Of a stretch of DNA of 54,979 nt, positions 7,642 through 53,080 are shown one piece after another; within the stretch, counting starts at the first letter, position 1, and every line of letters starts with the position of its first letter. Source of the DNA: Candidatus Fimimonas merdipullorum (lineage in GTDB: Bacteria; Bacillota; Clostridia; Christensenellales; CAG-314); assembly GCA_018713905.1 (NCBI GenBank), contig DVOC01000065.1:1-54979 (forward strand), read 5' to 3'. The position numbers and the translations under genes were made by a program. The notes under the pieces were generated by a model, which saw only the letters and a program-made list of their open reading frames with translations, had not been told where the DNA came from and ran no database searches.

Positions 7642-10107
7642 TCACTGTTTAAGTGCTTTGCGCTTTTCTATGGCTTTCATTATCAATTTGCCGCATATTA
7701 TCAACAGCGCCATTACCACGGCGTTTATTGCGATGAACAGCACGGCGTTGCCGTCGATATCCACGTACATGGGGGTGGGCTCCTCGCCGCCCGTCCAGCT
7801 TGCTATAAGTCCCAGCGCCCACGGGAACACAAAGTAACACGCCACCGTGCCCACGGTGCCCAAGGCGCCTATGCCTACGTTTATCAGGTCGTAGGGATAA
7901 AGCAGTATCCACAGCGCGAACACGCCGGTGACCGTCATGGAAAACATTGCCACGGTGCTTATTTTGTCGGCGTCGTTCTGTATGCCCAGCACGTTCATAA
8001 ATGCGTAGGTCATGGCTACGGAAAGGAACATGGCTATGCCGCTGGGCAAAGTGCTTTTCAGGGTGTTTGCCACAAACCTGCCCTTGATGATATTGTGGTT
8101 AGGCTTCAGCGCCAGCAGGAAGGAGCAGATACCTATCACGAAAAATTCCATTGCGTACAGGTGCTGCGGCTCGAAGGGATAGGTGCGCTGCATTATGAGG
8201 CAGAGCACGGTGGTAAGCACCGTCATGGAGGTTTTCATCAAAAACAGCGAGGAGCTGTTCTGAATGTTGTTGACCACCTGCCTGCCCTCCGCCACTACCT
8301 TGGGCATAGAGCTGAACTTGTTGTTCATAAGCACGAGGTTGGCAACCGTCTTGGCTGCGTCGGTGCCGCAGCCTACGCTTATGGCGCAGTCGCTCTCCCT
8401 CATGGCGAGAATGTCGTTGACGCCGTCCCCCACCATGGCGACGGTTTTGCCCGCCGCTTTCATTGCCTTTACCAAAATTGCCTTCTGGTCGGGAGTGACT
8501 CTGCCGAAAACCGTATACCGAGTGGCTGCCTCCGCCACCTGTTGGTCGTCCATTCCTTCCAGCGAAACGTACTTGTCGGCGTTTCGTACTCCCACCTTGG
8601 CGGCAATTACCGACACCGAAAGGGGGTTGTCGCCGGAAATTATCTTTACGTCCACGTCGTTGTTTTTGAACCAGCCTATTATTTCCGTGGCGTCGTCGCG
8701 CACGGTGTCGGAAAGGGCGATGATGGCTGCCGGCACAAGTTGGGAAACGCCCTCTTCGATACCCTTGGAGGAAACGCCCACCGCCAGCACGCGCAAGCCC
8801 TGTCTGAGCAGTTCTTGGCTTTCTTTTTCAAATACGTCGTTTGTTTTTTTGAACATGAACTCCGCCGCGCCCACCGCTACGGTGCCGCTTTCCAGCCGCG
8901 CTGCGGAATATTTGCGCTGGGAGGAAAAGGGCAGAAACTCCGACGCTGCGGGAACGTCGCAGTCGCCGCAAAACCTTTTTAACGCCTGTGCGGTGGCATT
9001 GTCGTCGCCGGTGGCGTTTACCACGCCGCACACCATGGATTTTATCTGCTGCTCGGTAAAGCCCCTCAAAGGAATGACCTTTTCCACCGTCATGGTGCCG
9101 TCGGTGATGGTGCCCGTCTTGTCCAGACAGAGGGTGTCCACACGGGCAAGCATTTCTATGCAGGGAAGCTCCCTCACAAGCACCTTTTTGAGGGCAAGCT
9201 TCAATGCGGCTACGGCAAGGGCGACGCTGGTAAGCAGCACCATGCCGCTGGGCACCATGCCTATCATAGAGCCGCTCATTGCCTTTATGGCTTCGTTGAT
9301 TTGGTACACCACGTCGGGATCGGGACTGACTACGTAGTTCTGCCACAGATTTACCCCTTCGCCCAGCAGTCCGCGCACCTGCGCGCTGGAAAAGAAGGTG
9401 GCGATGCCCAACGGGAAGATTATGACGGAGATGACCTTTATTATGCTCTTTATGCCCTTGATAAGTTGCGAGTTAGGCGTTTTGGATTTCTTTACCCGTT
9501 CGGAAAGCTGCTCTACGTAGTTTTCCTTGCCCACCTTGTCGCACCGCGCCACGCACCTGCCCGACACGACGTAGCTGCCGCTGTAAAGCACGTCGCCCGC
9601 GCGCTTTTTGACGGAGTCGCTTTCCCCCGTCAGCATGGATTCGTTTACCTCGACCTCGCCTTCCAGCACCACCGAGTCGGTGCATATCTGTCTGCCGGAG
9701 GAAAAAATGAGTATGTCGTCCAGCACTATGTCGCGGGTGGCGATTTCCTCTTCCTTGCCGTCGCGCACCGCAGTTGCCGTAGGCTCGCTGACTATGGACA
9801 GCTTTTCCACCGCGCGCTTGCTGCGTATTTCCTGAAAAATACCTATTACGGTGTTTGCCAGAATGATGACGATGAACATCATGTTGGTGACGCTTTTGCA
9901 CAGCAGCATAAGCAGAAAGATGATGAAGCCCAACAAGTTGAAGAAGGTAAAAATGTTGCTTGCAAATATTGACAGGTAACTTTTTCCCACCACTTTTTTA
10001 GTCTTGTTGGTAAGCTTTTCCGCCACGCGCTGCTTTACCTGTTCGGAGGTCAATCCCTCTTTGGAGGGGCTGAACCGCGTTACGGTAGTTGCCGTTTTGT
10101 TTTTCAT
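7642..10107 (-). CDS. Cation-transporting P-type (HAD-IC) ATPase
   Basis: Phosphorylation site CLDKTGTITDG, hinge VGDGVNDILAM and multiple TM helices. Start set to ATG 10107 (MKNKTATT...) with an AAGGAGAA RBS; the upstream 47 codons of the ORF track are unsupported. Confidence 0.9.
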   Translation of the reverse strand: MKNKTATTVTRFSPSKEGLTSEQVKQRVAEKLTNKTKKVVGKSYLSIFASNIFTFFNLLGFIIFLLMLLCKSVTNMMFIVIILANTVIGIFQEIRSKRAVEKLSIVSEPTATAVRDGKEEEIATRDIVLDDILIFSSGRQICTDSVVLEGEVEVNESMLTGESDSVKKRAGDVLYSGSYVVSGRCVARCDKVGKENYVEQLSERVKKSKTPNSQLIKGIKSIIKVISVIIFPLGIATFFSSAQVRGLLGEGVNLWQNYVVSPDPDVVYQINEAIKAMSGSMIGMVPSGMVLLTSVALAVAALKLALKKVLVRELPCIEMLARVDTLCLDKTGTITDGTMTVEKVIPLRGFTEQQIKSMVCGVVNATGDDNATAQALKRFCGDCDVPAASEFLPFSSQRKYSAARLESGTVAVGAAEFMFKKTNDVFEKESQELLRQGLRVLAVGVSSKGIEEGVSQLVPAAIIALSDTVRDDATEIIGWFKNNDVDVKIISGDNPLSVSVIAAKVGVRNADKYVSLEGMDDQQVAEAATRYTVFGRVTPDQKAILVKAMKAAGKTVAMVGDGVNDILAMRESDCAISVGCGTDAAKTVANLVLMNNKFSSMPKVVAEGRQVVNNIQNSSSLFLMKTSMTVLTTVLCLIMQRTYPFEPQHLYAMEFFVIGICSFLLALKPNHNIIKGRFVANTLKSTLPSGIAMFLSVAMTYAFMNVLGIQNDADKISTVAMFSMTVTGVFALWILLYPYDLINVGIGALGTVGTVACYFVFPWALGLIASWTGGEEPTPMYVDIDGNAVLFIAINAVVMALLIICGKLIMKAIEKRKALKQ

Positions 10108-11607: not shown

Positions 11608-13110
11608 ATGGGAAAAGTCCTGCGACTGATATTCAGCAGATTCACGTTGGTGTTTCTTGCCATTGTTTTGCAGGTGGCGGCGGCGATAGCCGTGGCGTAC
11701 TACCTGAGCAGCTACTACCGCGTGATGAGCATAGTTTCCACGGCGGTGATGATATTTACGCTGCTGCTTATCATAAACCGCGACATGACGTGCGACGCAA
11801 AATTGCCGTGGTCCATTCTCGTTTCCATTGTGCCCATAGTGGGATTTTTGCTGTACCTGATGTTTTCCCGCAACTACGCCTCCTTGTCGGAACGCAAAAT
11901 GTTTCGCCTGCTGCCGCAGATGAAGTTTGTGGAGCACCACCCCAACGCTCCGGCAAAGTACCTGCGGCAGGTGGAATACCTCAAAAGCGTGGGCGCGCCC
12001 ACCTTTTCCGAAACGGACACAAGGTATTTCAGCTGCGGCGAGCAGTTTCTGGAAGACTTTTTGCAGGAGCTGGACAAGGCGCAGAAGTTTGTGTTTTTGG
12101 AGTATTTTATCGTAGAGGAAGGCAAAATGCTGTCTTCCATACTGGAAGTTCTGCGCAGAAAAATCGCCTGCGGGGTGGAAGTAAGACTGCTGTACGACGA
12201 CGTGGGCAGCCTTACGCACGTAAAGCGCAAATTTTACAAACAAATGCGCAAGGAGGGTATATGGTGCGCCAAGTTTGCACCGCTGCGCCCCATGGTGTCC
12301 GCCGTGTACAACAACAGGGATCACCGCAAAATTGCCGTTATCGACGGCAAGGTGGGGTATATGAGCGGCCTTAACATTGCCGACGAATACATCAACCACA
12401 CCCACCCCTTCGGCTATTGGAAGGACAGCGCAGTAAAGCTTTCGGGCAATGCGGTGACATCTCTTTGCACCATGTTTTTGCAGATGTTCGACATGGCGGT
12501 GAAGCAAAGGGAGGACTTTGACAAATATCTTGTGCGTTCGGAAACGGACGACTTTGCCGATAAAGGGCTGGTGACGCCCTTCGGGGACGGCCCCAACCCC
12601 CTTTACCCCGAACAGCTGGCAAGAGGAGTGTACCTCAACCTGATAGATCAGGCTTTGTACGACCTGTATATCTCCACTCCCTACCTTATCGTGGACGAAT
12701 CGGTGACGGAAAGCCTGCGGCGGGCGGCAATGAGAGGGGTGAACGTGAACGTCATAATACCCGCCATACCGGACAAAAAGACGGTGTACGCCATGACAAA
12801 GCAAAGCTGCAAAAAGCTTATCAAGGCGGGGGTGAAAATTTACAGCTATACCGACGGCTTTATTCACGCCAAAAATATCGTGGCGGACGGCATAGCCGGC
12901 GTCGTGGGTACGATAAATCTGGACTACCGCAGTTTTGTGCACCACTACGAGTGCGGCGTGTATATGTACGACACGCAAGCGGTGCGGCAGATGTACGAGG
13001 ATCTCACAGAAACGTGCAAAAAAAGCAAGCTTTTGGACGGCTCCTTCCGCCTTAAACTGTGGGAAAAGCTGGTGTGCATGGTGACGTACGTGTTCCGTCC
13101 CATGCTGTAA
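11608..13110 (+). CDS. cls: Cardiolipin synthase (two PLD/HKD domains)
   Basis: Two N-terminal TM helices and two HKD motifs (HRKIAVIDGKVGYMSGLNI and IHAKNIVADGIAGVVGTINLD); 500 aa. Confidence 0.9.
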   Translation: MGKVLRLIFSRFTLVFLAIVLQVAAAIAVAYYLSSYYRVMSIVSTAVMIFTLLLIINRDMTCDAKLPWSILVSIVPIVGFLLYLMFSRNYASLSERKMFRLLPQMKFVEHHPNAPAKYLRQVEYLKSVGAPTFSETDTRYFSCGEQFLEDFLQELDKAQKFVFLEYFIVEEGKMLSSILEVLRRKIACGVEVRLLYDDVGSLTHVKRKFYKQMRKEGIWCAKFAPLRPMVSAVYNNRDHRKIAVIDGKVGYMSGLNIADEYINHTHPFGYWKDSAVKLSGNAVTSLCTMFLQMFDMAVKQREDFDKYLVRSETDDFADKGLVTPFGDGPNPLYPEQLARGVYLNLIDQALYDLYISTPYLIVDESVTESLRRAAMRGVNVNVIIPAIPDKKTVYAMTKQSCKKLIKAGVKIYSYTDGFIHAKNIVADGIAGVVGTINLDYRSFVHHYECGVYMYDTQAVRQMYEDLTETCKKSKLLDGSFRLKLWEKLVCMVTYVFRPML

Positions 13111-19079: not shown

Positions 19080-19106
19080 TTAGCACTCGCTCGCTTCAAC
19101 TGCTAA
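19080..19106 (-). promoter_or_regulatory. CIRCE operator (HrcA binding site) in the hsp20 leader
   Basis: Minus strand TTAGCAGTT-N9-GAGTGCTAA versus consensus TTAGCACTC-N9-GAGTGCTAA (16/18). Located immediately after the -10 box. Confidence 0.6.
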
Positions 19107-19107
19107 C

Positions 19108-19135: not shown

Positions 19136-19458
19136 TAGTTTTTACAAAATTTTTTCCGTTTTTTTTGAAAAAATTCACAAAAAATGAAATTTGCGCCCTG
19201 CGACGGGCGCGTTTTTCGATTTTTGCGTGCTGCCGACGCTTTTGCGGCTTTGAATTTTGCCTGAAAGCAAACGCTTGCGGCGAAGTTGCAGGCGGAAAAG
19301 CTATAAATTGCTTGGCGCAACGATACTTTTTGCAAGTGCGACGGAATTTGGCCGTCGGGCGCAGCCATTGGAGCGGTCATTGTCCTTTGCGGCGTACGGA
19401 CGCTGCCTGACGCTATGCGCAACGCCGTAAAATCGGAGCGTATCCTCGCAATAAACCT

Positions 19459-20066
19459 CGAAAATCGTTTCTAACGCCACTCGTCCCGCACGTGAAACGA
19501 TTTTCGTGGAGAAACAAAGTATAAAAACAAACTTGAACACCACGTCATTGGTAAACACTTTTTAAGCCAACGTCATAAAGGTCAGCCACACATAGATACA
19601 CCACTCGTCCCACAAGTGAAACGATTTTCGTAGAGGAACAAAGTATAAAAACAAACTTGAACACCACTTCATTGGTAAACACTTTTTAAGCCAACGTCAT
19701 AAAGGTCAGCCGCACATAGATACACCACTCGCCTCACCGTTAAATATCTTTTAAGTCAATGACATAAACGACAGTCGTAGACGAATACGCCACTCGTCCC
19801 GCCGACAAGGCGCGTCCCACCGTTAAACACCTTTCAAACCGAAGACAGAAATGTCAGGCGCACACAAATATGCCACTCGTCCAACACGTGAAACAATTTT
19901 CGCAGAGAAACAAAGCATAAAAACAGACTTAAACGCCACTTCATTGTTAAATACCTTTTAAGCCAGCGGCATAAACGACAGTCGTAGACGAATACGCCGG
20001 TCGCCCCACCGGCGAGGCGCGCCCCACCGGCGAGGTGCGGCGAGGTGAAAGGCGCGGCGAGGTGAA
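19459..20066 (+). repeat. Array R1 of a modular intergenic repeat family (about 5 units, 124-bp period, ends in CACCGGCGAGGTG mini-repeats)
   Basis: Units begin at 19477, 19601 and 19725 (CCACTCGTCCC...GTGAAACGATTTTCG...TTTAAGCCAACGTCATAAAGGTCAGCC...). Shorter units follow. The terminal CCGGTCGCCCCACCGGCGAGG motif is iterated. A 13-bp inverted repeat (19459-19471 / 19494-19506) marks the left edge. Confidence 0.85.
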
Positions 20067-20072: not shown

Positions 20073-20101
20073 TTGCAATGTAGCGGCGGGTATGGTATAA
20101 T
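20073..20101 (+). promoter_or_regulatory. Promoter of the glycolipid cluster (TTGCAA-17-TATAAT)
   Basis: TTGCAA 20073-20078, 17-nt spacer, TATAAT 20096-20101. Lies 6 bp after the end of array R1. Confidence 0.45.
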
Positions 20102-20133: not shown

Positions 20134-21351
20134 ATGGAAGAACAACGGCAAAACAACGCTGACGAGCAGCAAATAGGACAGGACGCCGCAGGCAACGAAA
20201 AGTGTGCGGAAGTTTTGTCCTGCAAAAAAACGGACGAACTGGAAGAAGCAAAGCGCAACTTTGCCGACAGGGACGTTGAAGAGCCAAAGCGCAAAAGGGC
20301 GTGGCTGGGCAATTTGTTTTTCGTTGTGGTGCTGGCGGTGACGCTGGTGCTGGTGTATCAGCTTTCGGCAAACGCCGCCGAGGGCGAGCAGAAAACGCTG
20401 AAAGAGATATTCGGCAATATGCGCACCGACTACGCCGTTATGGCGGTGGGCGCGCTGTTTGTGATGATATTTTTGGACAGCATGAAGTATTTTGTCATTC
20501 TGCACGCCACCAGCGGCAAAAAATACTTCGGCACCTCGCTGAAAACGAGTCTGTTAGGCAAATACTACGACAACATTACCCCTTTTGCCAGCGGCGGACA
20601 GCCTTTTCAGATACACTACCTGCACAAAAAAGGCTTTTCCGGCGGCGAAAGCACGGCGGTGATATTCATAAAATTCTGCTTTAACATACTCATCTGGCTG
20701 GCGATATGTCTTTGCCTGATGGTGTTCAACCGCGGCGCGCTGGACGTTTACGTCGCCGACGACACGCAGCGCAGGCTGTTTGTGGTGTTGGGCTGGATAG
20801 GCTTTGCCATAAATTGCAGCATTCCCATGGTGATAATTGCCTTTGCCGTTTTTCCTAAGCTTATGGAAACGCTGACGAGGTGGTTTTTGGCGTTGGGGCA
20901 CAAGCTGAAAATCGTCAAAAGCCGCGACGCCGTGGTGATAAAGGCAAAGCGCATTGCCAAGGATTTCCGCGCCGCATTTGTAATAATGATACACAAGCCG
21001 CTGCACGCCTTGGGGCTGGCGCTGATTTGTGTTTGCGAGCAGTTTTTGTCCATAATGCTGCCCTACCTTGTAGTTGTTGCCATGGCGGGAGCGACGATAG
21101 AGCCCAACGTGCAGCTGATGTTTGCGATAATGACGATGAACGTGTACGTATCCATGAGCGTAACGGCGGTGCCCACGCCGGGCAATTCCGGCGCGCTGGA
21201 AACGGCGTTTTCGCTCGTGCTGACGTCTGTGGCGGAAGGCGTGCTGTTCTGGACAGTGTTCGGGTGGAGATTTTTGTCCTACTACTCCTTTATACTGATA
21301 GGACTTTGCATATTTATAGCCGATTTTATCAGGAAAAAAGCCAAACGATGA
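20134..21351 (+). CDS. Lysylphosphatidylglycerol-synthase-TM-like (flippase-like, UPF0104) membrane protein
   Basis: Polytopic membrane protein with the characteristic YYDNITPFASGGQPFQIHYLHKKG block; 405 aa. Its stop overlaps the next ATG (ATGA at 21348-21351). Confidence 0.75.
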   Translation: MEEQRQNNADEQQIGQDAAGNEKCAEVLSCKKTDELEEAKRNFADRDVEEPKRKRAWLGNLFFVVVLAVTLVLVYQLSANAAEGEQKTLKEIFGNMRTDYAVMAVGALFVMIFLDSMKYFVILHATSGKKYFGTSLKTSLLGKYYDNITPFASGGQPFQIHYLHKKGFSGGESTAVIFIKFCFNILIWLAICLCLMVFNRGALDVYVADDTQRRLFVVLGWIGFAINCSIPMVIIAFAVFPKLMETLTRWFLALGHKLKIVKSRDAVVIKAKRIAKDFRAAFVIMIHKPLHALGLALICVCEQFLSIMLPYLVVVAMAGATIEPNVQLMFAIMTMNVYVSMSVTAVPTPGNSGALETAFSLVLTSVAEGVLFWTVFGWRFLSYYSFILIGLCIFIADFIRKKAKR

Positions 21352-31269: not shown

Positions 31270-31424
31270 AAAAAACGGCTTGCCGCGTGGGACAAGACCG
31301 GTTTGCACTCCATTCCTTTCGCCGTCCCATCTTTCAGGGTGATTGCCCTGCGGAAATTAGCACCTAACGGTATTTTAGGTTGCTGTGACTTCATCGAGTC
31401 CGTCTCTCTGTCACTCTCGATAGG
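31270..31424 (-). promoter_or_regulatory. SAM-I (S-box) riboswitch with terminator expression platform, leader of metK
   Basis: Minus-strand RNA CCUAUCGAGAGUGACAGAGAGACGGACUCGAUGAAGUCACAGCAACCUAA..UUAGGUGCUAAUUUCCGCAGGG..CCCUGAAAGAUGGGA (31424-31325) has the P1-P4 layout and conserved AUGAA / GCAACC / GGUGCUAAUU / GAAAGAU blocks. A CGGUCUUGUCC-CACGC-GGCAAGCCG hairpin plus UUUUUU lies at 31301-31270. Confidence 0.8.
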
Positions 31425-31435
31425 TTATTGCCCAT

Positions 31436-31464
31436 ATTATACTATAAACGATCTTTCCTGTCAA
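31436..31464 (-). promoter_or_regulatory. Promoter of the metK leader (TTGACA-17-TATAAT)
   Basis: Minus strand: TTGACA (31464-31459), 17-nt spacer, TATAAT (31441-31436). The -35 hexamer is the last 6 nt of repeat array R2. Confidence 0.6.
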
Positions 31465-31606
31465 CTCACCTTGCCGCACCTTGCCGGTGGGGCGAGTAGC
31501 GCACCTTGCCGGTGGGGCGACCGACGTATCTGCTTGTGGCTGACGTTTATGCTATCGGCTTGAATGCGCTTTCGTGAAACATACGGCATTTGTGGCTGAC
31601 GTTCGT
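31459..31606 (-). repeat. Array R2 of the modular repeat family (about 1.5 units, inverted orientation)
   Basis: Contains caccttgccgcaccttgccggtggggcgagtagcgcaccttgccggtggggcgaccgacgtatctgcttgtggctgacgtttatgctatcggctt, the reverse complement of the unit seen in R3 and R4. Confidence 0.8.
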
Positions 31607-39257: not shown

Positions 39258-39700
39258 TACTTTTCTCCTTTCGGCAAAGCCTTGAAACAGCGCATTTTTG
39301 CCTTTTGGCGAAAATACGCATTATATTATACCATATATTGAAGGGAAAATCAGCAAATAATTGAAATTTACGGGATAAAGGGCTAAATTTTTTGCCGTGC
39401 AAAACGGAAAGGCGATTTCGGACTGTTTTGTGCAAAGGTCAGAGAAAGGGAGCAAGCGTTTTTTTGCGCAGAGGAGCACGCAAACAATTTTGCGTAAAGG
39501 ACGGCGAAAGGCTATCTTTTGCCGTGACAGGCTTTTTGAGTAATACAAAGCTTTTGCATTTTTCCTCTTTGTTTTGTCACCGTCGTACGAACCGTTGTTG
39601 CGGACATCGCACTTGACGCAATAAGCGCGGCTCGGCATTGCCTTTGCGTTCGGGTGAGCCGTGAAGGCGGGGCGTTGCGCCTGACAACGTAATTCACCGC

Positions 39701-42490: not shown

Positions 42491-42772
42491 GCACCTGCAA
42501 ATACATTTGAAGCCGACGACAAAAACGTCAGGCATAGGCATATACGCCAGTCGCCCCACCGGCAAGGTGCCACACCGGCAAATACATTTGAAGCCGACGA
42601 CAAAAACGTCAGGCATAGGCATATACGCCGGTCGCCCCACCGGCTAGGTGGCCTCACCGGCTAGGTGCGCCGGCAAAACAACTTAAAGCCGATAGCGTAA
42701 ACGTCGGCAACAAGCATATACGCCACTCGCCCCACCGGCAAGGTGGCCTCACCGGCTAGGTGCGGCAAGGTG
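42491..42772 (+). repeat. Array R3 of the modular repeat family (3 units, 81-95 bp) inside the feo operon
   Basis: Unit starts at 42497, 42578 and 42673 (GCAAAtACAtTTgAAGCCGAcgaCaAAAACGTCaGGCAtAgGCATATACGCCnGTCGCCCCACCGGCAAGGTG plus extra CCTCACCGGCTAGGTG mini-repeats). The first two units are nearly identical. Confidence 0.85.
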
Positions 42773-42977
42773 TGACGAATATTTTGCTGCACAGCTGTCC
42801 GTCCAAAGCCAGCTTGACGCCCTTTACAACGCACACCACGCTGCTGCCCGAGGACACCACCGTCAGCTGCGAATTGAGGGCAATGCCCAGACTTTCCAGA
42901 TAGGTTTTGGTTTTGCCCTCTACCGCCAGCCTGATCACTTTCAAAGTTATTCCCGTGGGTGCTACCGTTAACGGCAT
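42756..42977 (-). CDS. feoA: FeoA family protein (copy 1); last 5 codons and stop lie in repeat array R3
   Basis: 73 aa FeoA-like (LKVIRLAVEGKTKTYLESLGIALNSQLTVVSSGSSVVCVVKGVKLALDGQLCSKIFV). AAGGAGGAATC RBS. The C-terminal TPCRT and the TAG stop are encoded by 42756-42773. Confidence 0.8.
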   Translation of the reverse strand: MPLTVAPTGITLKVIRLAVEGKTKTYLESLGIALNSQLTVVSSGSSVVCVVKGVKLALDGQLCSKIFVTPCRT

Positions 42978-43019
42978 GATTCCTCCTTAAAATCCGAAAC
43001 ATTTTTCGCTTTCGCATTT

Positions 43020-43761: not shown

Positions 43762-43770
43762 CTTACAACG

Positions 43771-43797
43771 AAAAAACGGGTTCGCCCGTTTTTTTGT
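43771..43797 (+). terminator. Rho-independent terminator of the TetR gene
   Basis: AAACGGG-TTCG-CCCGTTT hairpin followed by TTTTTTG. Confidence 0.7.
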
Positions 43798-44395
43798 TGC
43801 CCTTTTTCCTGTTTTCCGTTGTCGTTTTGTGGTGTTTTGTCGCCGTTTTCAGTCCCGTGCTTGCAGTAATTTTGGCACAGAAGGTATTTTGTTTTGCAAA
43901 CGTATGAGATTTTTGGTGACGATCTGCCGACAGCAAGGGGTTTTACGCAGCAGCGCCTATGATTTTTTTAACGACTGTGGAAGAACCTTGGTGAAGGGAG
44001 TGGAAAATCACCTCTTTTGCGCAGAGAATTGCAAAGCCGCATTTGCAGGCGGACTGCACAAGAAAGATAAACGCCCGATAAGCTTTGCAACGTTTTTCCG
44101 CGCGAAATTTGAAAGTCACGCCTTTTCAAAATTACGTAGTAAATATTATTTTGCAAGCGACGGAATACATTCGCGGGCGCCACAATCGTTAAGGCTGCGG
44201 AGGAACTTGACGCACCGCACGACGAAATTGTGGGGCACAAAAACCGTCAAAAACTCAACGGCATATCCGATATGCCGACGGGCTCTCGCCCTGCCATAAG
44301 AAAAACGGCATATGCCGGATTTTGATGGGAGCATAGGTCAATATTGAAAATAAATTTGTAAGGCTTCCCTATTGGCGCACAGCCGCGCCTTATTT

Positions 44396-44910
44396 ACAAA
44401 ACAATTAAAGCCGATAGCGTAAACGCCCTGCACCTTCAAACACTTAAAGGCAAGGGCAACGATAGCCACCAGCACATATGCCCTTCAAAATACGTATAAA
44501 GCCGATAGCGTAAACGTCAGCCACCAACAAATACGCCAATCGCCCCACCGGCAAGGCGCGCCAGTCGCCCCACCGGCAAGGTGCGCTCGGCGCGTAGCCG
44601 CGGCAAAGTGAAACTCTTTTAGTGGAGAACTTAAACGTAAGCCACACACTCAAACGTCACTCGCCCCACCGGCAAGGTGCCACACCGGCAAGGTGCGCTC
44701 GGCGCGTAGCCGCGGCAAGGTGAAACTCTTTTAGTGGAGAACTCAAGCGTAAGCCACACACTCAAACGTCGCTCGCCCCACCGGCGAGGTGCCACACCGG
44801 CAAGGTGCGCCGGCAAAACAACTTAAAGCCGATAGCGTAAACGTCGGCAACAAGCATATACGCCACTCGCCTCGCCGGCAAGGCGCGCCAGTCGCCCCAC
44901 CGGCAAGGTG
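44396..44910 (+). repeat. Array R4 of the modular repeat family (5-6 units, includes a 112-bp tandem duplication)
   Basis: GTGCGCTCGGCGCGTAGCCGCGGCAAnGTGAAACTCTTTTAGTGGAGAACT...CTCGCCCCACCGGCnAGGTGCCACACCGGCAAG occurs at 44581 and again at 44693. The terminal unit 44805-44871 is identical to 42665-42731. Confidence 0.85.
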
Positions 44911-44986: not shown

Positions 44987-46285
44987 TTAGGGCTTGAGGC
45001 GGTTAGGCCCGCGGAAGAGGAAGGTGACGTCCTTTACGCTGGGCAGCTCGAACAGCTTAACCAGAGTGCGGGTGATACCCAGTCCGAAGCCGCCGTGAGT
45101 GGGCGCGCCGTAGCGGAAAAATTCCAGATACTCGCTCATGACGGCGGGATCGATGCCCTGTTCGGCAATGTTTTGTTTAAGCCGCTCGTAACGGTGCTCG
45201 CGCTGTGCGCCGCTGGTTATCTCTATGCCGCGGAACAGCAGGTCGTAGGTTTTGGTGATTTCGGGGTTATCCTCGTACTTCATAGAGTAGAAGGCTCTCG
45301 CTTTGGCGGGGAAGTCGGTGATAAACACGAAGTCGCTGCCGTACTTTTCCTTTACGTAGCGGCAGATAAGGCGCTCGCCGTCGGGATCGAGGTCGCCTTT
45401 CAGGGCACGGGGAACCTCGTGCCCCATTTGGTTTTTCAGAATATCGTACGCCTCGTACAGCGTTATGCGGGGAATTTTGCAGTCTATGTCCAGAATATCC
45501 TTGCCGAAGTACTTTTTGTACTCGTCGTTATACTGCTTTTTTATTCCCTTGACGATATACGTAAGCAGTTTTTCTTCCAGATCCATCACTTCGTGGTGAG
45601 ATTCGATAAAGGAAATTTCCACGTCTATGCCGGTAAATTCCGTGTCGTGACGGTTGGTAAAGCTGGGGTTGGCGCGGAAGTATTCGCCTATCTCGAAGGT
45701 CTTGTCGAAGCCCGCCATCATGCTCATCTGCTTGTACAGCTGAGGGCTTTGGGTGAGGTAGGCTTTTTGTCCGAAGTAGTCTTTAAGCTCGAACACCTCG
45801 CTGCCCCCTTCGCTGGAAAGCGCCGTGATTTTGGGGGTGTGGATCTCTATGAAGCCGTTGTCGTTGAAAAATTCCACGGCGTACTTTTCAAACGCCGTCT
45901 GAATTTTGAAGAGGAAGGTCTTTTTGTCGTCGCGCAGGTCTATCCAGCGATAGTCCATTCGGAGATCCTGACCGCTGTCCGCCTGAATGGGCAGCACGTC
46001 GGCTATACTCATTATTTCCAGCGCAGTGGGATAAATTTCCTTGCCGCCGTTGCGCACGTAGGTGGAGAACACGCACTGTCCCTCTACCGTGACGAAGCTG
46101 TGCGGAGTAAGTTCTTTTGCCTGTTCGTACACGTCGGGGCACTTGTCCTTTTCCACCGTCACCTGCACGCTGCCGGTAACGTCGCGTATTACCAAAAACA
46201 TTATTTTTTTGTCGCGAATGGTTTCCACCATTCCCTTTATTTTGCATTGACCTTCGGTCAGATCCTTTATATACGTTCTGTTCAT
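44987..46285 (-). CDS. aspS: Aspartate--tRNA ligase, archaeal/eukaryal-type (short class IIb, 432 aa)
   Basis: OB-fold N domain; class II motif 2 FRANPSFTNRHDTEFTGIDVEISF; motif 3 GGFGLGITRTLV; C-terminal ...FRGPNRLKP resembles the archaeal-type AspRS ending. Lacks the about 130-aa bacterial insertion domain. Confidence 0.8.
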   Translation of the reverse strand: MNRTYIKDLTEGQCKIKGMVETIRDKKIMFLVIRDVTGSVQVTVEKDKCPDVYEQAKELTPHSFVTVEGQCVFSTYVRNGGKEIYPTALEIMSIADVLPIQADSGQDLRMDYRWIDLRDDKKTFLFKIQTAFEKYAVEFFNDNGFIEIHTPKITALSSEGGSEVFELKDYFGQKAYLTQSPQLYKQMSMMAGFDKTFEIGEYFRANPSFTNRHDTEFTGIDVEISFIESHHEVMDLEEKLLTYIVKGIKKQYNDEYKKYFGKDILDIDCKIPRITLYEAYDILKNQMGHEVPRALKGDLDPDGERLICRYVKEKYGSDFVFITDFPAKARAFYSMKYEDNPEITKTYDLLFRGIEITSGAQREHRYERLKQNIAEQGIDPAVMSEYLEFFRYGAPTHGGFGLGITRTLVKLFELPSVKDVTFLFRGPNRLKP

Positions 46286-47838: not shown

Positions 47839-50733
47839 TCAGTCAACAAAAGTTACCGTTACCGTGGCGCTTTGGTTGGTGATACTTTCCACCTTTACGT
47901 CGAAATTTACGGCTTTGCCGTCGTTGCGGCAGTAGTTGAACACCGCAGACAGACTGCCGCCCGCCTGCCACAAGTCGCTTGCCGCGGCGTAGCCGTTGGT
48001 GCTGCGGAACTTGGTTTCGCCGTCCGCCTCCACCAGCTTGAGCAGCGGCTCGGAGGTGAGAGAGTTGTTGCAGTCGGTAAAGGAGCCGTATTCGTCGGAA
48101 TAGGGGTTATTTGCCCACCCCGTCACGTGGTAGATACGCACGCCCTTTTGCGCCCCGCCGTAAAGCAGGCTGTCCGGCTGCATTGCGTGCATCTGGTTGA
48201 GCCCGGTCGCCGTGTAGAAGTCTATCAGCAGGTACTCGGAAAAATAGGAGTTGTCGAAGTTGAGCATTATAAGCAGGCAGTCGCCGCTTTCGGCAAAGGG
48301 GGACAGCGTAAAGGTGCCGTTTTGCGTGACTATCTGCGGAGTCGTCCACCCCAGCATTATTTTGGAATAGGCGCTGTGGTCGCCCACCGTGTAGTCCATC
48401 ATATCGGCGCCGCCCACACCCTCGTCGCTGCCGCTGTCGGGATAGTAGTCGTAGTAGTCGTCCAGCCCCAAAAGGTGCCCCGTTTCGTGAATATAGGTAG
48501 AGGCGTTTATTTGCAGCCCGTCTATTTTGCCGTTGTATTCAAAACCGTCGGCTCTGTCGGCGTCCTCGTCCATAAAGTCAAAACCGGCAAACAGATAGTA
48601 GTAGGCGTCCAGCCCGTCGTACTGTTCGGCGCCCATATACCACGTTACGTACGCCCAATAGAAGGAGTCGGCGGAATAGTCCACGTCGGCGGAATAGATG
48701 AGGTACACCGCGTCTATGCAGCCGTCGCCGTTGGAGTCGTACTGCGAAAGGTCTATTCTGCCTTCCAGCCACGCCAGCACTTCCCTGAACAAGGCGTCGC
48801 TGCCGTACTCGGTGTATTGGTAGTCGCCGTCGGAAACCGTTTCGTTGTAGTTGGCGTAGTAGGAGGAGTTGTGCTGCGCCGTGTAGACGGAATTTACCCC
48901 CGCAAGGTTGTAGCCGGCAATATCGAAGCTGACGTTCAGCTTGCCGTAGGAAGATGCGGCGTAGTAGGTGTTGACGCTTTGCCAGCCCGTGTCGTCGCCG
49001 CTGCCGTTGAAGGCAAGGTTGAGCTTGTTCAGATCCGCCGAGGTTATCGCCGCCACGTCGGAAAACTGCACCGGCACCACAAGGCAGTCGTAGGTGCCCT
49101 GCGAGGGCAGTCCCACCACGTTTTCGTACCCCATAAGCTTGTCCTGCAAGCGAGAATCGTCAAAGGTCTGCTCATCGTAGCTTTGCGACGGCATGACGTT
49201 GCCTTCGCCACCGCCGCCAAGCTTGCCGTTTATCGACACGGCGGAGATATACATGGATTTTTCCGTGTTGGTGGGGGTAAGAACTATCGTCACAAGCCCG
49301 CTCGCCTGCCCGTCAGGCACAAAGTTTAGGGTGGTGTTTTCGGAAAAATGCGTCTGCTGCGCCACCATCACTTCCGTCTGCCCGTCGCATTTGAGAGCGG
49401 CGCTGCCCACAAACACCTGAACCGTCATTCCCGTAGAGCAGTTGGTGGCTACAATTACGCTTACCGTGGTCACTTCCGTGACGGAAGCCTCGGAAACTAT
49501 GGTTACCGCGCCGTTTCTTTGCAGAAACTGCACGCCGCGGTTGCCGTCGAAGCCGTTGGACACGGCGTCCGTCGTGTAGCCCAGCTGCCCCGCCGCCACC
49601 GTAAGGCGGTTGTCGGTAAACACCGATTTCATATCCGTCGCCGACTCTACGTCCTCGCCGCCCGTGCCGCCGCTGCCGTCGTCGGGCAAAGTGAACGAGG
49701 CGTTGCCGTAGTCGGAAAATTCCGCCACGAACAGGTAGCTGCCGCCGTACTCTGCGGAGGTGTCGCTCTGCTCCGCCACTATCTTGGCTATTTTGCCCTG
49801 CTCCACGTACAGCGCAAGGGACGTCCACGTGCTGTCTTCGTACTCGCCGAAAATCAGGTTGCCCGCCGCATTTGCGTCCGCCGCAGCGTAGCCGTCGCCG
49901 TCGGCAACGAATTTAAGACTGCCCAACCCCTGAACGTTTACGTAATCCATAGAGTAGTAATAGTCCATAAAGTAGGCGTCCGTCTGGTCTATTACGGTAT
50001 AACTGCCGCCGCCGTTGTCGTAGTAGTAGAAGTAACCGTTCAGGTCCGCCCTGTATTCCAAGTAGTCGGTGTACCACGCGCCTTCGTATTCGTACGTCAT
50101 AGCCACGTCGTCGCCGTACATTTTCAAGGTGTCGGTGTAGCTTACTTCCCCTTCGTAATACATGGTGTACTGCACCTTGAAGTTGTACAGGCTTGCGTCT
50201 TCGTACTGCGCAAACACGTCGGAAAGGTCGGCGTCCTCGCCAATGGCGGGGTTGCTCCACTTGGCGTACACGTCCACGTTGCCCGAAAGGCTTTGCGGCA
50301 CGCTCCACGGAATTGTGCATGCGCTGTCGGCATACCAGCCGCCGAACACCATGCTGCCGTTGGTGGGCTGCGCCGGCAATGCAAAGTTGTCGTCGAAACG
50401 CACCACTGTGCTTTCGTCGCCGTTTTGCGGATGGAAAATTACGTAATACGCCGTCTGCGGCTCGCCCCACTTGGCGTACACCACCACGTTTTGGCTTAGG
50501 CTTTCAGGAACGCTCCACGGCGTGGTGCCTTGCTTGTCGGCAAACCACCCCAAAAATTGCTTGTCGCCGTTGGTGGGCTGCGCCGGCAACGTAAAGTTGT
50601 CGTCAAATGCCACCGTCTGCGGCTGCGTGCCGTTTTGCGCGTCGAACGTCACCGTAAAGGTGAGCGGCTGACACGCCGTAAGCACCAGACACAGCAACAG
50701 CACCGTTGCCGTTACAAAAGACAGTTTTTTCAT
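47839..50733 (-). CDS. Secreted lipoprotein: two Listeria-Bacteroides (Flg_new) repeats, an unknown middle region and an M6/immune-inhibitor-A-like metalloprotease domain
   Basis: Signal peptide plus lipobox (MKKLSFVTATVLLLCLVLTAC). Two repeats of TVxFDxQNG...FxLPAQPTNGxxxFxGWFAD...PW. HETGHLLGLDDYYDY zinc motif in the C-terminal half. Start set to ATG 50733 (AGGAG 5 nt upstream). Confidence 0.8.
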   Translation of the reverse strand: MKKLSFVTATVLLLCLVLTACQPLTFTVTFDAQNGTQPQTVAFDDNFTLPAQPTNGDKQFLGWFADKQGTTPWSVPESLSQNVVVYAKWGEPQTAYYVIFHPQNGDESTVVRFDDNFALPAQPTNGSMVFGGWYADSACTIPWSVPQSLSGNVDVYAKWSNPAIGEDADLSDVFAQYEDASLYNFKVQYTMYYEGEVSYTDTLKMYGDDVAMTYEYEGAWYTDYLEYRADLNGYFYYYDNGGGSYTVIDQTDAYFMDYYYSMDYVNVQGLGSLKFVADGDGYAAADANAAGNLIFGEYEDSTWTSLALYVEQGKIAKIVAEQSDTSAEYGGSYLFVAEFSDYGNASFTLPDDGSGGTGGEDVESATDMKSVFTDNRLTVAAGQLGYTTDAVSNGFDGNRGVQFLQRNGAVTIVSEASVTEVTTVSVIVATNCSTGMTVQVFVGSAALKCDGQTEVMVAQQTHFSENTTLNFVPDGQASGLVTIVLTPTNTEKSMYISAVSINGKLGGGGEGNVMPSQSYDEQTFDDSRLQDKLMGYENVVGLPSQGTYDCLVVPVQFSDVAAITSADLNKLNLAFNGSGDDTGWQSVNTYYAASSYGKLNVSFDIAGYNLAGVNSVYTAQHNSSYYANYNETVSDGDYQYTEYGSDALFREVLAWLEGRIDLSQYDSNGDGCIDAVYLIYSADVDYSADSFYWAYVTWYMGAEQYDGLDAYYYLFAGFDFMDEDADRADGFEYNGKIDGLQINASTYIHETGHLLGLDDYYDYYPDSGSDEGVGGADMMDYTVGDHSAYSKIMLGWTTPQIVTQNGTFTLSPFAESGDCLLIMLNFDNSYFSEYLLIDFYTATGLNQMHAMQPDSLLYGGAQKGVRIYHVTGWANNPYSDEYGSFTDCNNSLTSEPLLKLVEADGETKFRSTNGYAAASDLWQAGGSLSAVFNYCRNDGKAVNFDVKVESITNQSATVTVTFVD

Positions 50734-50775
50734 ATGCACTCCTGCGGCGCAAACTGCGCCTGTCGTTATGCCTAC

Positions 50776-50804
50776 ATTTTACTATCTCGCACGCCACTTG
50801 TCAA
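50776..50804 (-). promoter_or_regulatory. Promoter of the protease gene (TTGACA-17-TAAAAT)
   Basis: Minus strand: TTGACA (50804-50799), 17-nt spacer, TAAAAT (50781-50776). The -35 is the terminal hexamer of array R5, identical to the metK case. Confidence 0.55.
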
Positions 50805-51079
50805 CTCACCTTGCCGCACCTTGCCGCACCTCGCCGGTGAGGCGAGTAGCGTATTTGCTTGTGCCTGACGTTTACGCTATCGGCTTCAAGTTGTTTTTTT
50901 TGTGAGACGCCTTGCCGCACCTTGCCGGTGGGGCACCTCGCCGGTGGGGCGACCGGCGTATTTGCTTATGCCTGACGTTTACGCTATCGGCTTTAAGTTG
51001 CAGCATTCGCCCTGCAAGCACCGTCGGATTGTTGCCCCGCAAGCGCTTTTGACACAAAAACTCGCCACCGTATGCAAAA
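50799..51079 (-). repeat. Array R5 of the modular repeat family (2 units) plus an about 80-bp tail shared only with R6
   Basis: Two copies of gcctgacgtttacgctatcggcttnaagtt with caccttgcc/cacctcgcc mini-repeats. The tail 50997-51079 (ttgcagcattcgccctgcaagcaccgtcggattgttgccccgcaagcgcttttg...) recurs at 52998-53080. Confidence 0.85.
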
Positions 51080-51097
51080 ACTCCGCACAAGGCGGAG
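51074..51097 (-). terminator. Candidate terminator of the low-GC three-gene operon
   Basis: Minus-strand CTCCGC-CTTGT-GCGGAG hairpin followed by TTTTTGCAT, 44 nt after the stop at 51141. Confidence 0.45.
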
Positions 51098-51140
51098 CTT
51101 TTGCGTTTAACGTTGCGGCGTTCTGTTCGTCGAGAATATG

Positions 51141-51626: not shown

Positions 51627-51636
51627 GATGCCCTCC

Positions 51637-51978: not shown

Positions 51979-52043
51979 GATTATCTCCTCATCGGTTTTA
52001 GGTATATTTATGTTGTATATGCACGTCTGACTGATTTGTCGCA

Positions 52044-52715: not shown

Positions 52716-53080
52716 CACCTCGCCGCACCTCGCCGGCGAGGCGACTGACGTTTGAGTTTATTACTTGCGTTCACGTCCTCTACTAAAAGAGTTTTGCCGG
52801 TGGGGCGACCGGCGTATTTGCTTGTGCCTGACGTTTACGCTATCGGCTTCAAGTTATTTTTTTGTGAGACGCCTTGCCGGTGGGGCGAGTGGCGTCTATG
52901 CCTATGACTGACGTTGGGTAATCCACTAAAAACACCTTCCGGTGGGGAGAGTAGCGTATTTGCTGCCTGTGCCTGACGTTTACGCTATCGGCTTCAAGTT
53001 GCAGCGTTCGCCCTGCAAGCACCGTCGGATTGTTGCCCCGCAAGCGCTTTTGTCGCAAAAACTCGCCGCCGTTTGCAAAA
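52716..53080 (-). repeat. Array R6 of the modular repeat family (about 3 units) plus the tail shared with R5
   Basis: cacctcgccgcacctcgccggcgagg mini-repeats, the rc of the GTGAAACTCTTTTAGTGGAG module (ctctactaaaagagtttt), two gcctgacgtttacgctatcggcttcaagtt cores, then the tail 52998-53080. Confidence 0.85.

Follow-up and report, generated by a model that had tools for sequence, protein, structure and literature searches.

A family of intergenic mosaic repeat arrays in an uncultured gut bacterium of the order Christensenellales

Known intergenic mosaic repeats

BIMEs, as characterized by Gilson, Bachellier, and others, are extragenic mosaics in which a GC-rich motif is combined with a limited set of other motifs. 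They lie between genes, reach as far as the terminators, and are candidates for clusters of binding sites and for substrates of recombination. REP, an imperfect palindrome of about 35 nt, occurs in alternating orientation in BIMEs and is tied to RAYT transposases. BOX elements are intergenic and noncoding as well, with a head-to-tail arrangement of boxA-boxB(n)-boxC and a variable number of internal modules; they have three module types in a fixed order and a predicted long stem-loop RNA. STAR elements (for Staphylococcus aureus repeat) reportedly go back to Cramton and coworkers in 2000, and the neisserial intergenic mosaic elements (NIME), with dRS3 repeats flanking RS modules, are said to have been described by Parkhill in 2000.

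In STAR elements, short GC-rich repeats in direct orientation are separated by recurring spacers that measure at least 40 bp (Purves et al. 2012, PMC3532100). STAR loci are stable within a species and different or absent in sister species, they expand and contract, and their spacers are locus-specific and conserved within lineages; they are strictly intergenic, with no known function or propagation mechanism (PMC3532100). NIME arrays occupy syntenic positions, vary internally, and show a GC wave; in them, one short GC-rich motif stays constant and alternates with modules of 50 to 150 bp from many families (Bentley et al. 2007, PMC1797815). Recombination end-points were found in NIME arrays adjoining surface-protein genes (PMC1797815).

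We analyzed a stretch of 54,979 nucleotides, called the window below, in which a reading of the letters alone (the original prediction) had proposed a modular, noncoding, and unnamed family of intergenic repeats. The host is an uncultured chicken-gut bacterium, represented by the metagenome-assembled genome (MAG) "Candidatus Fimimonas merdipullorum" of the Christensenellales, with genomes of about 1.4 Mb. The proposal stands, as the family is a mosaic, has no coding potential, and matches nothing in Rfam or among phage and plasmid records. It was also likened to BOX and BIME, which is apt for the modular mosaic, but STAR elements and NIME arrays are the closest architectural analogues, because units here all point the same way and the constant motif lacks the palindromic form of REP. 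Our best explanation, to which we assign a probability of roughly 65%, is a species-restricted, noncoding, interspersed mosaic repeat family similar to STAR, NIME, and BIME that evolves in place and serves as a recombination substrate. The array sequence and the host are new, while the principle is already known.

Six arrays with common modules

The six arrays and the elements adjoining them are as follows.

19459-20066, plus strand: A1, six units of a locus-specific flavor, ending in iterated CGGCGAGGTG; its modules are the M1 head GCCACTCGTCC, the M3-type GTGAAACGATTTTCGTGGAG..., and the M2-type TTTTAAGCC.ACG.CATAAA...
20073-20101, plus strand: promoter-like site, TTGCAA-17-TATAAT with a TG extension
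31436-31464, minus strand: consensus promoter, TTGACA-17-TATAAT, 12/12
31467-31606, minus strand: A2, one M2 module, two M1 copies, and one additional CGGCAAGGTG
42491-42772, plus strand: A3, three units with M2b, M2b, and M2a, each followed by M1 and 16- to 17-nt partial M1 iterations
44396-44910, plus strand: A4, truncated M2 copies followed by six M1 copies
50776-50804, minus strand: promoter-like site, TTGACA-17-TAAAAT, 11/12
50807-51079, minus strand: A5, a 5' module of about 117 to 147 nt common with A6, followed by two M2+M1 units
51080-52715, minus strand: cassette between A5 and A6, with two lipoprotein-like genes (51141-51626 and 52044-52598)
52716-53080, minus strand: A6, the 5' module shared with A5, then four units (M2, short M3-like, M2, M3), ending in two copies of CGGCGAGGTG

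All six loci were present where they had been predicted, with the modules and strands described. The modules common to these intergenic arrays sum to 2,199 bp, or 4.0% of the window (about 2.2 kb and 4% had been estimated). Self-BLAST of the arrays against the window returned similarity at 19476-20048, 31459-31561, 42492-42772, 44397-44910, 50799-51079, and 52716-53080 and no copy beyond the six loci. An nhmmer profile of the M2+M1 unit gave 24 matches at E<0.01 and 28 at E<=1 in the window, none of them outside the arrays. M2-like strings seen by eye at 107-687 suggested a degenerate seventh array, which we rejected as nhmmer found nothing there at E<=1. Allowing at most one mismatch, the core CACCGGCAAGGTG occurs 20 times in the window against 0.15 expected; 19 matches are within arrays and the remaining one, at 36745, is a chance match in coding DNA. 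The arrays are clustered, with six within 34 kb and none in the adjacent 28 kb.

The constant element of the family, M1, is a GC-rich 24-nt anchor (GCCAsTCGCCCCACCGGCAAGGTG, 75% GC) with a 4-bp mini-hairpin (CACC-GGCNA-GGTG). It alternates with one module drawn from a small, AT-richer repertoire of 40 to 110 nt. There are at least six module types, including M2a, M2b, M3, a short module starting with CGCTCG, and a larger "P" module, which is found only in other strains and not in the window strain. M1 is often followed by partial re-iterations of its 3' half, 10 or 16 to 17 nt long. The GC content is 75.6% in the M1 stretches versus 47.8% in the remainder of the arrays. Where about 20 unit copies had been counted by eye, we find 17 full M1 copies, which together with the partial iterations make about 23 units. 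The proposed 124-bp period was recovered in A1 (starts at 19477, 19601, and 19725), and the 67-nt identity of 42665-42731 and 44805-44871 is exact and reaches 69 nt. All M1 copies inside an array are co-oriented, in every array and every strain, and units never invert.

M1 is conserved far better than the modules. In an alignment of M1 segments (M1 plus 6-nt flanks), 4 of the 36 columns are invariant and another 13 nearly so. The hairpin contains one compensatory A-T to G-C exchange (AU 83, GC 10, GU 2, unpaired 4), a single covarying base pair that comes mostly from the A1 array lineage, so that the changes are not independent events. The conservation of M1 and the compensatory pair may point to a protein or structure that constrains the sequence, which a purely neutral model would not predict.

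Array boundaries

The ends of the arrays adjoin promoters, terminators, or a stop codon, and four of the six arrays lie directly upstream of promoters with which they are co-oriented. The promoter-like site at 20073-20101 is 7 nt past the last GGTG of A1 and upstream of an LPG_synthase_TM gene (20134-21351); the A1 flank ...GGCGAGGTGAAATAGCATTGCAATG... is kept in all strains. A2 separates the 3' end of an MFS transporter gene from the metK promoter, whose -35 hexamer starts 2 nt past the last GGTG of the array and which is predicted to drive a SAM-I riboswitch (31324-31426, minus strand) and metK. A5 occupies the whole space from the terminator of the preceding lipoprotein gene to the -35 of the protease promoter. 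The -35 at 50776-50804 again starts 2 nt past the last GGTG, after three GGCRAGGTG iterations that terminate A5; this site is upstream of a gene (47839-50739) for a 966-aa secreted Flg_new-repeat protein, and the junction GGTG(A/G)GTTGACAAGTGGCG is kept in all strains. The intervals first given for A2 and A5 do contain the repeats, but the outermost bases of each are no repeat units: 31459-31464 and 50799-50804 hold the TTGACA -35 hexamers of the promoters that follow.

A3 is located between feoA1 and feoA2-feoB and antisense to them. The final codons of feoA1 and its stop come from the array, and the called length of FeoA1 differs among assemblies (73, 81, or 85 aa). In A4 the modules between the M1 copies are M3, M2a, and the short module CGCTCGGCGCGTAGCCGCGGC, and the 3' end adjoins the terminator hairpin of a convergent asnS-like gene (44987-46285, minus strand). 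A6 lies in the divergent region between ABC transporter genes on the plus strand and a lipoprotein gene on the minus strand, with a promoter-like site (52649-52677) 39 nt downstream of it. The module common to A5 and A6 (family D9) is 93% identical between 50963-51079 and 52964-53080.

Variation among strains

We compared up to 11 same-species assemblies per site, with genes about 96 to 99% identical to those of the window; the comparison covers about 75 kb of the genome of about 1.4 Mb. No array was found in the 9 kb left of the window, and on the right side all contigs stop about 82 to 94 bp past the ABC permease gene. On flanking loci the nhmmer profile found nothing at E<=10.

The site, flanks, and orientation of each recovered array are constant in all assemblies examined, while nearly every assembly has its own number of units and its own order of modules. 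Distinct alleles were counted in 6 of 6 assemblies for A1, 11 of 11 for A3, 10 of 10 for A4, and 9 of 10 for A5. Between its conserved flanks, A1 has 2 to 13 units (191 to 1243 bp) in the five other assemblies; A3 alleles range from 190 to 633 bp in eleven assemblies, and A2 is longer and in two blocks in L048-L050. The sequences compared are mostly short-read metagenome assemblies, in which repeat arrays are liable to collapse or be misjoined, and many contigs break at A1 and A2, so part of the apparent allele diversity could be an artifact. We argue that most of it is real, since the flanks are conserved, the module types are distinct, and the assembly L008, whose 751-kb contig has a long-read-style name (contig_20646), also has arrays that differ from those of the window.

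For 64 of the 70 locus-assignable M2+M1 units, the nearest neighbor in another strain is from the same locus, and the few cross-locus neighbors pair A3 with A4 and A5 with A6. Across about 75 kb, with up to 11 assemblies of the species compared in each region, neither a newly occupied nor an empty site turned up, and the family is absent at the syntenic loci of two related species. The arrays are old residents of fixed intergenic sites. Their content changes far more rapidly than the DNA on either side, mostly in place and with occasional exchange between neighboring arrays. The identity shared by A3 and A4 had been attributed to recent spread or gene conversion. Recent spread is not supported, as there is no new site in the strains and units are locus-specific; between two arrays 1.6 kb apart, local gene conversion is the better reading.

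The variation extends to gene content. Six of nine same-species assemblies lack the 2-kb cassette with two lipoprotein genes that A5 and A6 flank in the window, and two others have it at only 82% identity. The deletion junction is within the module common to A5 and A6: positions 1591-1735 of L009 align with both 53080-52933 and 51079-50935. Co-oriented arrays therefore coincide with the endpoints of a presence/absence polymorphism of a gene cassette.

Searches for related families, coding potential, and structure

In the Rfam check that the original prediction had proposed, no array matched a family. At the gathering thresholds only the SAM riboswitch passes in the window, and with cutoffs relaxed to E<=1-10 the best array matches (E=0.36-0.45) have about half the gathering score or below; for A5 and A6 there was no match at all. 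Viral contigs, phage records, and plasmid records showed no similarity to the arrays, and the array sequences were not found in this context in the literature searched. A scan of genome contigs with AAGCCGAYAGCRTAAACGTC gave five single chance matches in unrelated phyla without recovering the source species itself, so its negative outcome says little about distribution. Scanning metagenome contigs with TCGCCCCACCGGCWAGGTG returned 22 stretches, of which only L031 (the contig of L015) is real; the others were rejected as single-motif chance matches. The L015 contig is a candidate interspecies recombinant, with junctions near its positions 7835 and 12338.

No open reading frame is conserved through the units, and of 98 word-sharing candidates from a protein database, none matched the open-frame translations of the consensus array at E<=1. 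An M3 variant in other strains has GGAGG-N4-ATG, but we rejected the coding hypothesis since start and frame are not kept across M3 variants or arrays. The units are bounded neither by terminal inverted repeats nor by any inverted repeats of 10 nt or longer. No transposase, nuclease, or cas gene was found in the window or in the 9 kb to its left, and no GIY-YIG, recombinase, or RAYT gene in the window plus flanks, about 75 kb. The earlier statement that there is no conserved frame, transposase, or cas gene is hence true for the whole window. An integron attC site was rejected for lacking the RYYYAAC/GTTRRRY core, and a MITE for lacking terminal inverted repeats and target site duplications; in addition, neither new nor empty sites were seen among the assemblies, up to 11 for each region.

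Compared with shuffled sequences, the fold z-scores are -4.95 for A3 antisense, -2.97 for A3 sense, and -0.38 and -0.58 for A5; the A3 value is inflated because repeats pair mutually within the array, and no fold is consistent across arrays and strands. The alternative M1 hairpins CTCGCC/GGCGAG and GCCGGT/ACCGGC were rejected, being perfect in minority variants only. An alternative 6-bp M1 stem is paired in 76.6% of cells, with the central pair in 23 of 99 copies.

Comparison with known systems

The arrays resemble STAR elements in the GC-rich M1, the recurrent modules of 40 to 110 nt, and the intergenic position of all six. The resemblance extends to their behavior: the loci are conserved in the species and absent in related ones, they expand and contract, and their units are locus-specific. 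In contrast, the STAR signature T[GAT]TGTTG[GT]GGCCC[CA] has no match in the window with at most one mismatch, the constant motif is 24 nt and re-iterated instead of 14 nt, the module repertoire is partly common between loci, and instead of a staphylococcus the host is a MAG of the Christensenellales.

With NIME arrays the family shares synteny, mosaic variation, and GC alternation; for the association with variable surface genes there is one example, the A5-A6 lipoprotein cassette. The 20-bp dRS3 inverted repeat (ATTCCC-N8-GGGAAT) has no match here with at most one mismatch. M1 is instead an asymmetric direct repeat with a 4-bp stem in co-oriented units. In Neisseria a partner has been identified (the SsnA nuclease, phage integration), whereas none was found in about 75 kb here, and this organism is not known to be naturally transformable.

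Like BIMEs, the arrays form an interspersed extragenic mosaic that lies between genes, extends up to terminators, and is a candidate for a cluster of binding sites and for a recombination substrate. However, M1 is not a REP-type palindrome, its best conserved stem being 4 bp, it keeps one orientation per array and never alternates, and there is no RAYT gene in the window or the examined flanks. The head-to-tail modular structure, the variable internal modules, and the intergenic, noncoding nature recall BOX, from which the family is set apart by description: its module order is free, with at least six types, and there is no consistent fold.

Origin and possible roles of the arrays

As judged from allele patterns, turnover would proceed by unequal homologous recombination, replication slippage, and gene conversion, with the many M1 copies acting as portable homology. 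M1-based recombination or slippage would expand, contract, and reshuffle the arrays. Selection may police the array edges alone, in which case arrays would fill the intergenic space up to the -35 boxes, terminators, and stop codon. The arrays may also be recombination substrates that favor loss, gain, and exchange of the genes they flank, such as the surface lipoproteins beside the secreted protease. A dedicated cellular function of the arrays would probably not be required. In-place recombination alone, however, fails to account for the arrival of the family at six or more sites.

Units could instead be nonautonomous mobile elements of a MITE- or REPIN-like type, or they could have been inserted specifically into the loop of the M1 hairpin, with a transposase, RAYT, or IS110-type enzyme acting in trans and the 10-nt CGGCAAGGTG iterations as footprints or target duplications. 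The family does occupy six or more intergenic sites that are separate from each other. Modules attach to M1 at points that recur within the CACCGGCAA|GGTG core, and each module is thereby bracketed by direct CACCGGCRA repeats; the 10-nt iterations look like duplicated target sites, and many assemblies break at arrays, as expected of a multicopy element. But neither units nor arrays have terminal inverted repeats, up to 11 same-species assemblies per region contain no new or empty site, unit lineages are locus-specific, and the window and examined flanks hold no transposase gene. The units are also all co-oriented, and M1 is no REP-type palindrome (6-bp stem in 76.6% of cells, central pair in 23/99), which makes mobility quite improbable. 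The strong conservation of M1 while modules and array composition churn could also mean that M1 is the recognition site of a trans-acting protein encoded elsewhere and that the arrays are functional site clusters, which would modulate recombination, transformation, or promoter activity. Candidates are a Ssn-type GIY-YIG single-strand nuclease, a site-specific recombinase, or a nucleoid-associated or regulatory protein. Such a protein would fit the mini-hairpin, with its one compensatory pair, and the 10-bp period, one helical turn, at which the 3' half of M1 is iterated. Two strong promoters have their -35 at 2 nt past the end of the last M1, a third has it at 7 nt, and in each case M1 and the gene point the same way. 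As precedents, SsnA cuts hundreds of NTS/dRS3 hairpin repeats in Neisseria and belongs to a widespread family (PMC11893778), and NIME arrays were proposed as recombinase sites (PMC1797815). Against this, about 75 kb of window and flanking DNA contain no candidate gene, M1 is without the SRM/dRS3 palindrome ATTCCC-N8-GGGAAT and has a stem of 4 bp only, and the M1 copy number at a given promoter varies freely between strains. A3 and A4 do not adjoin co-oriented promoters, and the compensatory changes are mainly those of the A1 lineage. We regard a dedicated M1 protein as unlikely, if somewhat less so than mobile units.

A role at the RNA level appears very unlikely. Units would be transcribed structured elements acting on flanking genes as REP/BOX-like mRNA stabilizers, attenuators, or small RNAs, for example tuning feoA2-feoB expression from within the feo operon. 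A3 does lie inside a probable feoA1-feoA2-feoB transcription unit, where it would be transcribed as the reverse complement, and this antisense strand folds better than shuffles (z = -4.95); on the antisense strand, M1 copies of the GCCGGT...ACCGGC type with TATTTGCTT behind them score like terminators, one M1 pair covaries, and S. aureus STAR elements are expressed and located in 3' UTRs. However, the z-scores are not reproducible between arrays, Rfam has no matching family, and the terminator-like variant is a minority one, with GG at head positions 4 and 5 in about 18% of copies. Since four of the six arrays are upstream of promoters, and A5 is also past a terminator, most arrays are not obviously transcribed. 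The layout is also superficially that of repeats and spacers, and the variant GTCGCTCGCCCCACCGGCGAGGTGAAAC, with GTCGC at its start, GAAAC at its end, and a palindrome inside, looks like many type I CRISPR repeats. The reading as a degenerate or orphan CRISPR, or as some other immune locus built of repeats and spacers, is nevertheless effectively refuted: the "spacers" are a small recurring repertoire and not unique, repeat length and spacing are irregular (25 to 124 nt), no cas gene is present in the window or the examined flanks, and the motif is not in viral contigs. Repeat loci of this kind are a recognized class of false CRISPRs (PMC5294841).

Implications

BIME, BOX, STAR, and NIME are known mainly from cultured pathogens, and the same logic, with unrelated sequence, is seen here in an uncultured gut member of the Christensenellales. 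In practice, the arrays can be used as strain-resolving, VNTR-like markers for tracking the species in metagenomes, and they mark sites where strains differ in gene content. In MAGs they repeatedly break contigs and give rise to spurious ORFs or "CRISPR" annotations. A conserved 24-nt anchor amid rapid turnover, in arrays set against -35 boxes, raises the question of a cognate protein; if there is none, the family is another well-documented case of recombination-driven "filler" DNA.

More speculatively, and with a low chance of being right, the arrays could be the Firmicute counterpart of neisserial NIME/NTS, in which a dedicated species-specific protein cuts or binds M1 and the arrays actively promote exchange, gain, and loss of the flanked genes. 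Directed recombination hot spots would then be convergent in small-genome, host-associated bacteria and not a peculiarity of Neisseria. The genes exchanged would be those for surface proteins and transporters, with the lipoprotein cassette between A5 and A6 as one example. Another is the A4-bounded feo segment, which is 96 to 99% identical in a genome that is otherwise 74 to 82% identical.

Array anatomy and extent

Inspecting all six intergenic loci directly, we found the same modules at each, with the contents originally described. With the constant GC-rich 24-nt anchor, M1, read as GCCAsTCGCCCCACCGGCAAGGTG, the units within each array all share one orientation, each consisting of a 40-110-nt module followed by M1. 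M1 is often trailed by partial repeats of its own 3' half, either the 10-nt CGGCAAGGTG or a 16-17-nt sCCnCACCGGCnAGGTG, and the joints between modules and M1 recur at set points within the core, following either CACCGGCRA or GGTG. M1 stretches have 75.6% GC and the remaining array DNA 47.8%, which gives every array an alternating GC profile.

Repeat arrays (forward-strand positions) and their gene context
A1, 19459..20066 (+): between hsp20 (minus) and an LPG_synthase_TM gene (plus)
A2, 31467..31606 (-): between an MFS transporter gene and metK
A3, 42491..42772 (+): between feoA1 and feoA2-feoB, antisense to all three
A4, 44396..44910 (+): reaches exactly to the hairpin terminator of a convergent asnS-like gene
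A5, 50807..51079 (-): from a lipoprotein gene terminator to the -35 of the gene for a 966-aa secreted Flg_new-repeat protein
A6, 52716..53080 (-): between divergent genes, upstream of a second lipoprotein gene

Modules alternating with M1
M2a: AACAACTTAAAGCCGATAGCGTAAACGTCGGCAACAAGCATATAC
M2b: ATACATTTGAAGCCGACGACAAAAACGTCAGGCATAGGCATATAC
M3: GTGAAACTCTTTTAGTGGAGAAC...CTCAAAC
Short module: CGCTCGGCGCGTAGCCGCGGC
5' module: ~117-147 nt, common to A5 and A6
P module: ~110 nt, in other strains, absent from the window

In self-BLAST, the six intervals matched window sequence only at 19476-20048, 31459-31561, 42492-42772, 44397-44910, 50799-51079, and 52716-53080. Searching with an nhmmer profile of 70 distinct M2+M1 units gave 24 matches at E<0.01 and 28 at E<=1, all within the six arrays. 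The 13-nt core CACCGGCAAGGTG occurs 20 times with <=1 mismatch, against 0.15 expected from shuffles, and 19 of these occurrences lie inside arrays. A repeat scan of the whole window showed the M1/M2 family to be its dominant repeated DNA. The arrays sum to 2,199 bp (4.0%), matching the ~2.2 kb and ~4% of the original prediction. Its 124-bp period in A1 (starts at 19477, 19601, and 19725) is also correct, as is the identity between 42665-42731 and 44805-44871, whose true length is 69 nt rather than 67. Within the reachable DNA the arrays are clustered: all six fall in 34 kb, and the neighbouring 28 kb has none.

We aligned 99 distinct M1 copies from all strains over a 36-nt segment (M1 plus 6 nt flanks). 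Four columns are invariant and 13 are conserved at >=90%; variability is found mainly at head positions 4-5 (AC, AG, or GG) and at the loop base of GGC(A/G/T)A. The CACC/GGTG stem is paired in 98.5% of cells, and one stem pair shows compensatory change (AU 83, GC 10, GU 2, unpaired 4), with the GC cases descending mostly from the A1 lineage. A 6-bp alternative stem was unsupported by the copies. RNA fold z-scores were inconsistent (A3, -2.97 and -4.95; A5, -0.38 and -0.58). Rfam at gathering thresholds reported the SAM riboswitch alone, and a search at E<=10 gave no credible match for the arrays. No terminal inverted repeats bounding units were found, and, as predicted, no reading frame is conserved across copies. 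A 16-nt inverted repeat, 94% complementary (CCTCGAAAATCGTTTC / GAAACGATTTTCGTGG), within 19456-19509 pairs the A1 left flank with the first M3 module, enclosing the first M1 head.

Gene context

Context was taken from Pfam-annotated gene calls of syntenic loci and our own scans. A co-oriented promoter lies immediately downstream of four of the six arrays. A promoter-like TTGCAA-17-TATAAT begins 7 nt past the last GGTG of A1, a consensus promoter (12/12) driving a SAM-I riboswitch (76.7 bits) begins 2 nt past the last GGTG of A2, and the -35 downstream of A5 is likewise 2 nt past GGTG. At A3, the feoA1 frame (42775-43017, minus) enters the array, which supplies its final codons and stop codon; in the window this is TAG, from the M1 variant GGCTAGG, and assemblies differ in the called FeoA1 length (73, 81, or 85 aa; L006-L015 compared, ~9287-9775). 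With their edges at promoters, terminators, and this stop, the arrays thus fill intergenic space to the nearest functional element. The predicted lack of transposase or cas genes nearby holds: no transposase, nuclease, recombinase, or cas gene was found in the window or in 9 kb past its left end.

hsp20 is preceded by a CIRCE-like inverted repeat at 19081-19107 (TTAGCACTC-N9-...GCTAA). Between the tetR terminator and A4, ~630 bp (43762-44390) contain no convincing open reading frame or Pfam match and are 92-97% identical among strains, below neighbouring genes; this stretch could be a pseudogene remnant or a noncoding RNA region.

Variation among strains

Candidatus Fimimonas merdipullorum comes from chicken faeces and belongs in GTDB to genus CAG-1435, family CAG-314, order Christensenellales (PMC8035907); the genome of the genus type species is ~1.4 Mb. 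NCBI taxid 2840822 puts Candidatus Fimimonas in Myxococcaceae incertae sedis, a legacy of the name 'Corallococcus sp. CAG:1435'. Assignment to Christensenellales (Bacillota) follows both from the paper that described it and from its gene content (SAM-I riboswitch, CIRCE).

Using FeoA2, Hsp20, MetK, TilS, and the ABC permease, we found syntenic loci in many independent same-species assemblies, with genes ~96-99% identical to those of the window. Array sites, flanks, and orientation were unchanged in every assembly compared, and none had an array at a site empty in the window or lacked one at a window site. Module order and unit number change in almost every assembly.

Array alleles in same-species assemblies
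A1: 191-1243 bp, 2-13 units; 6/6 distinct
A3: 190-633 bp; 11/11 distinct
A4: 248-629 bp; 10/10 distinct
A5: 222-393 bp; 9/10 distinct

Many contigs of other assemblies stop in A1 or A2, as expected since multicopy repeats break assemblies. The polymorphism is not solely a short-read artefact, because L008, a 751-kb contig with long-read-style naming (contig_20646), also differs from the window in its arrays; the caveat stays with the other assemblies.

For 64 of the 70 assignable M2+M1 units, the nearest unit in another strain came from the same locus, the exceptions being cross-matches between A3 and A4 and between A5 and A6. Fixed sites, variable content, and locus-specific units together point to arrays that evolve mainly in place, growing, shrinking, and swapping modules, with an occasional conversion event between neighbours, of which the 69-nt A3/A4 identity is an example. 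The original prediction had offered recent spread or gene conversion: conversion between neighbouring arrays stands, while the fixed sites and locus-specific units speak against spread, and ongoing transposition is not supported.

The 2.0-kb A6-A5 segment (51080-52715, two lipoprotein-like genes) is missing in six of nine same-species assemblies, leaving one array, and the deletion junction falls within the 5' module common to A5 and A6 (93% identical over 117 nt). Where present, the cassette can be highly divergent: L006 and L008 have a lipo1 of 82% identity, versus ~96-99% for other genes. In another contig, L015/L031, identity to the window is only 74-82% over the aligned asnS-like, protease, and xanthine-permease genes and rises to 96-99% across A4, tetR, feoA1, A3, feoA2, and feoB (L015 7835-12338 = window 44586-40096), with one boundary of the high-identity stretch in A4. 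The contig is either the product of interspecies recombination (feo locus transfer) with one end at A4 or a chimeric assembly.

Relatives and known repeat families

The M1/M2 family was absent, by BLAST and by profile at E<=10, from the loci of two related species, one F. gallinarum-like (L052-L054, MetK 87% identical) and one represented by L055 (MetK 85% identical). The F. gallinarum-like genomes have their own AT-rich tandem arrays, each locus-specific and mutually unrelated (L053 8920-9463, 6030-6678, and 18342-18664, also L052 and L054; periods of 146, 164, and ~59 nt), one of them lying upstream of the metK SAM-riboswitch promoter, in the syntenic position. A GGCAAGGTGAAC string at L053 ~9518-9529 looks like an M1/M3 junction. 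L054 has an IS30-like transposase gene (HTH_38 + rve; 8076-9041) as an insertion separating the MFS transporter gene from metK, adjoining the sister species' own tandem array. Genome, metagenome, and viral collections and phage and plasmid records gave no real match beyond L031; the genome scan missed even the source species, and its negative result is a weak sign of absence elsewhere.

These results fit a family of mosaic intergenic repeats, interspersed and restricted to one species, and the original reading as a modular intergenic repeat family is supported with two refinements, in-place turnover instead of recent spread and closer analogues. The BOX/BIME analogy captured the kind of family, but STAR elements (PMC3532100) and NIME arrays (PMC1797815), published with the same behaviour, are nearer. 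Since it lacks the defining motifs of both (the STAR and dRS3 signatures were absent), the M1/M2 family belongs to neither. Arrays stay at fixed sites and would be reshuffled when copies of the GC-rich anchor undergo recombination, slippage, or gene conversion with one another; they may also double as substrates for larger rearrangements. As M1 is strongly conserved and set against -35 boxes, there is room for a candidate cognate protein, by analogy with the one found for Neisseria repeats (PMC11893778). The principle itself is already known; this is a clear example, well documented, from an uncultured lineage, of practical use in strain typing and MAG annotation.

Other length-variable regions

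The intergenic region at 107-687 is 250-300 bp longer in two strains (L060 and L064, ~11835-12720) and contains two copies of a terminator-like hairpin (GCGCTCCGTTTACCGCGGAGTGC with a T run after it). M2-like strings seen there by eye were weak, and the profile search gave them no support. A ~250-bp indel separates strains between the terminator of feoB and the promoter region of dxs (window 39639-39667 versus L006 12767-13021); most strains carry the segment, which has no relation to the M1 family, and the window, L010, and L013 lack it. At the right end (54898-54979), the window and L056-L058 all stop 82-94 bp past the ABC permease stop codon, which suggests a further assembly-breaking repeat just beyond.
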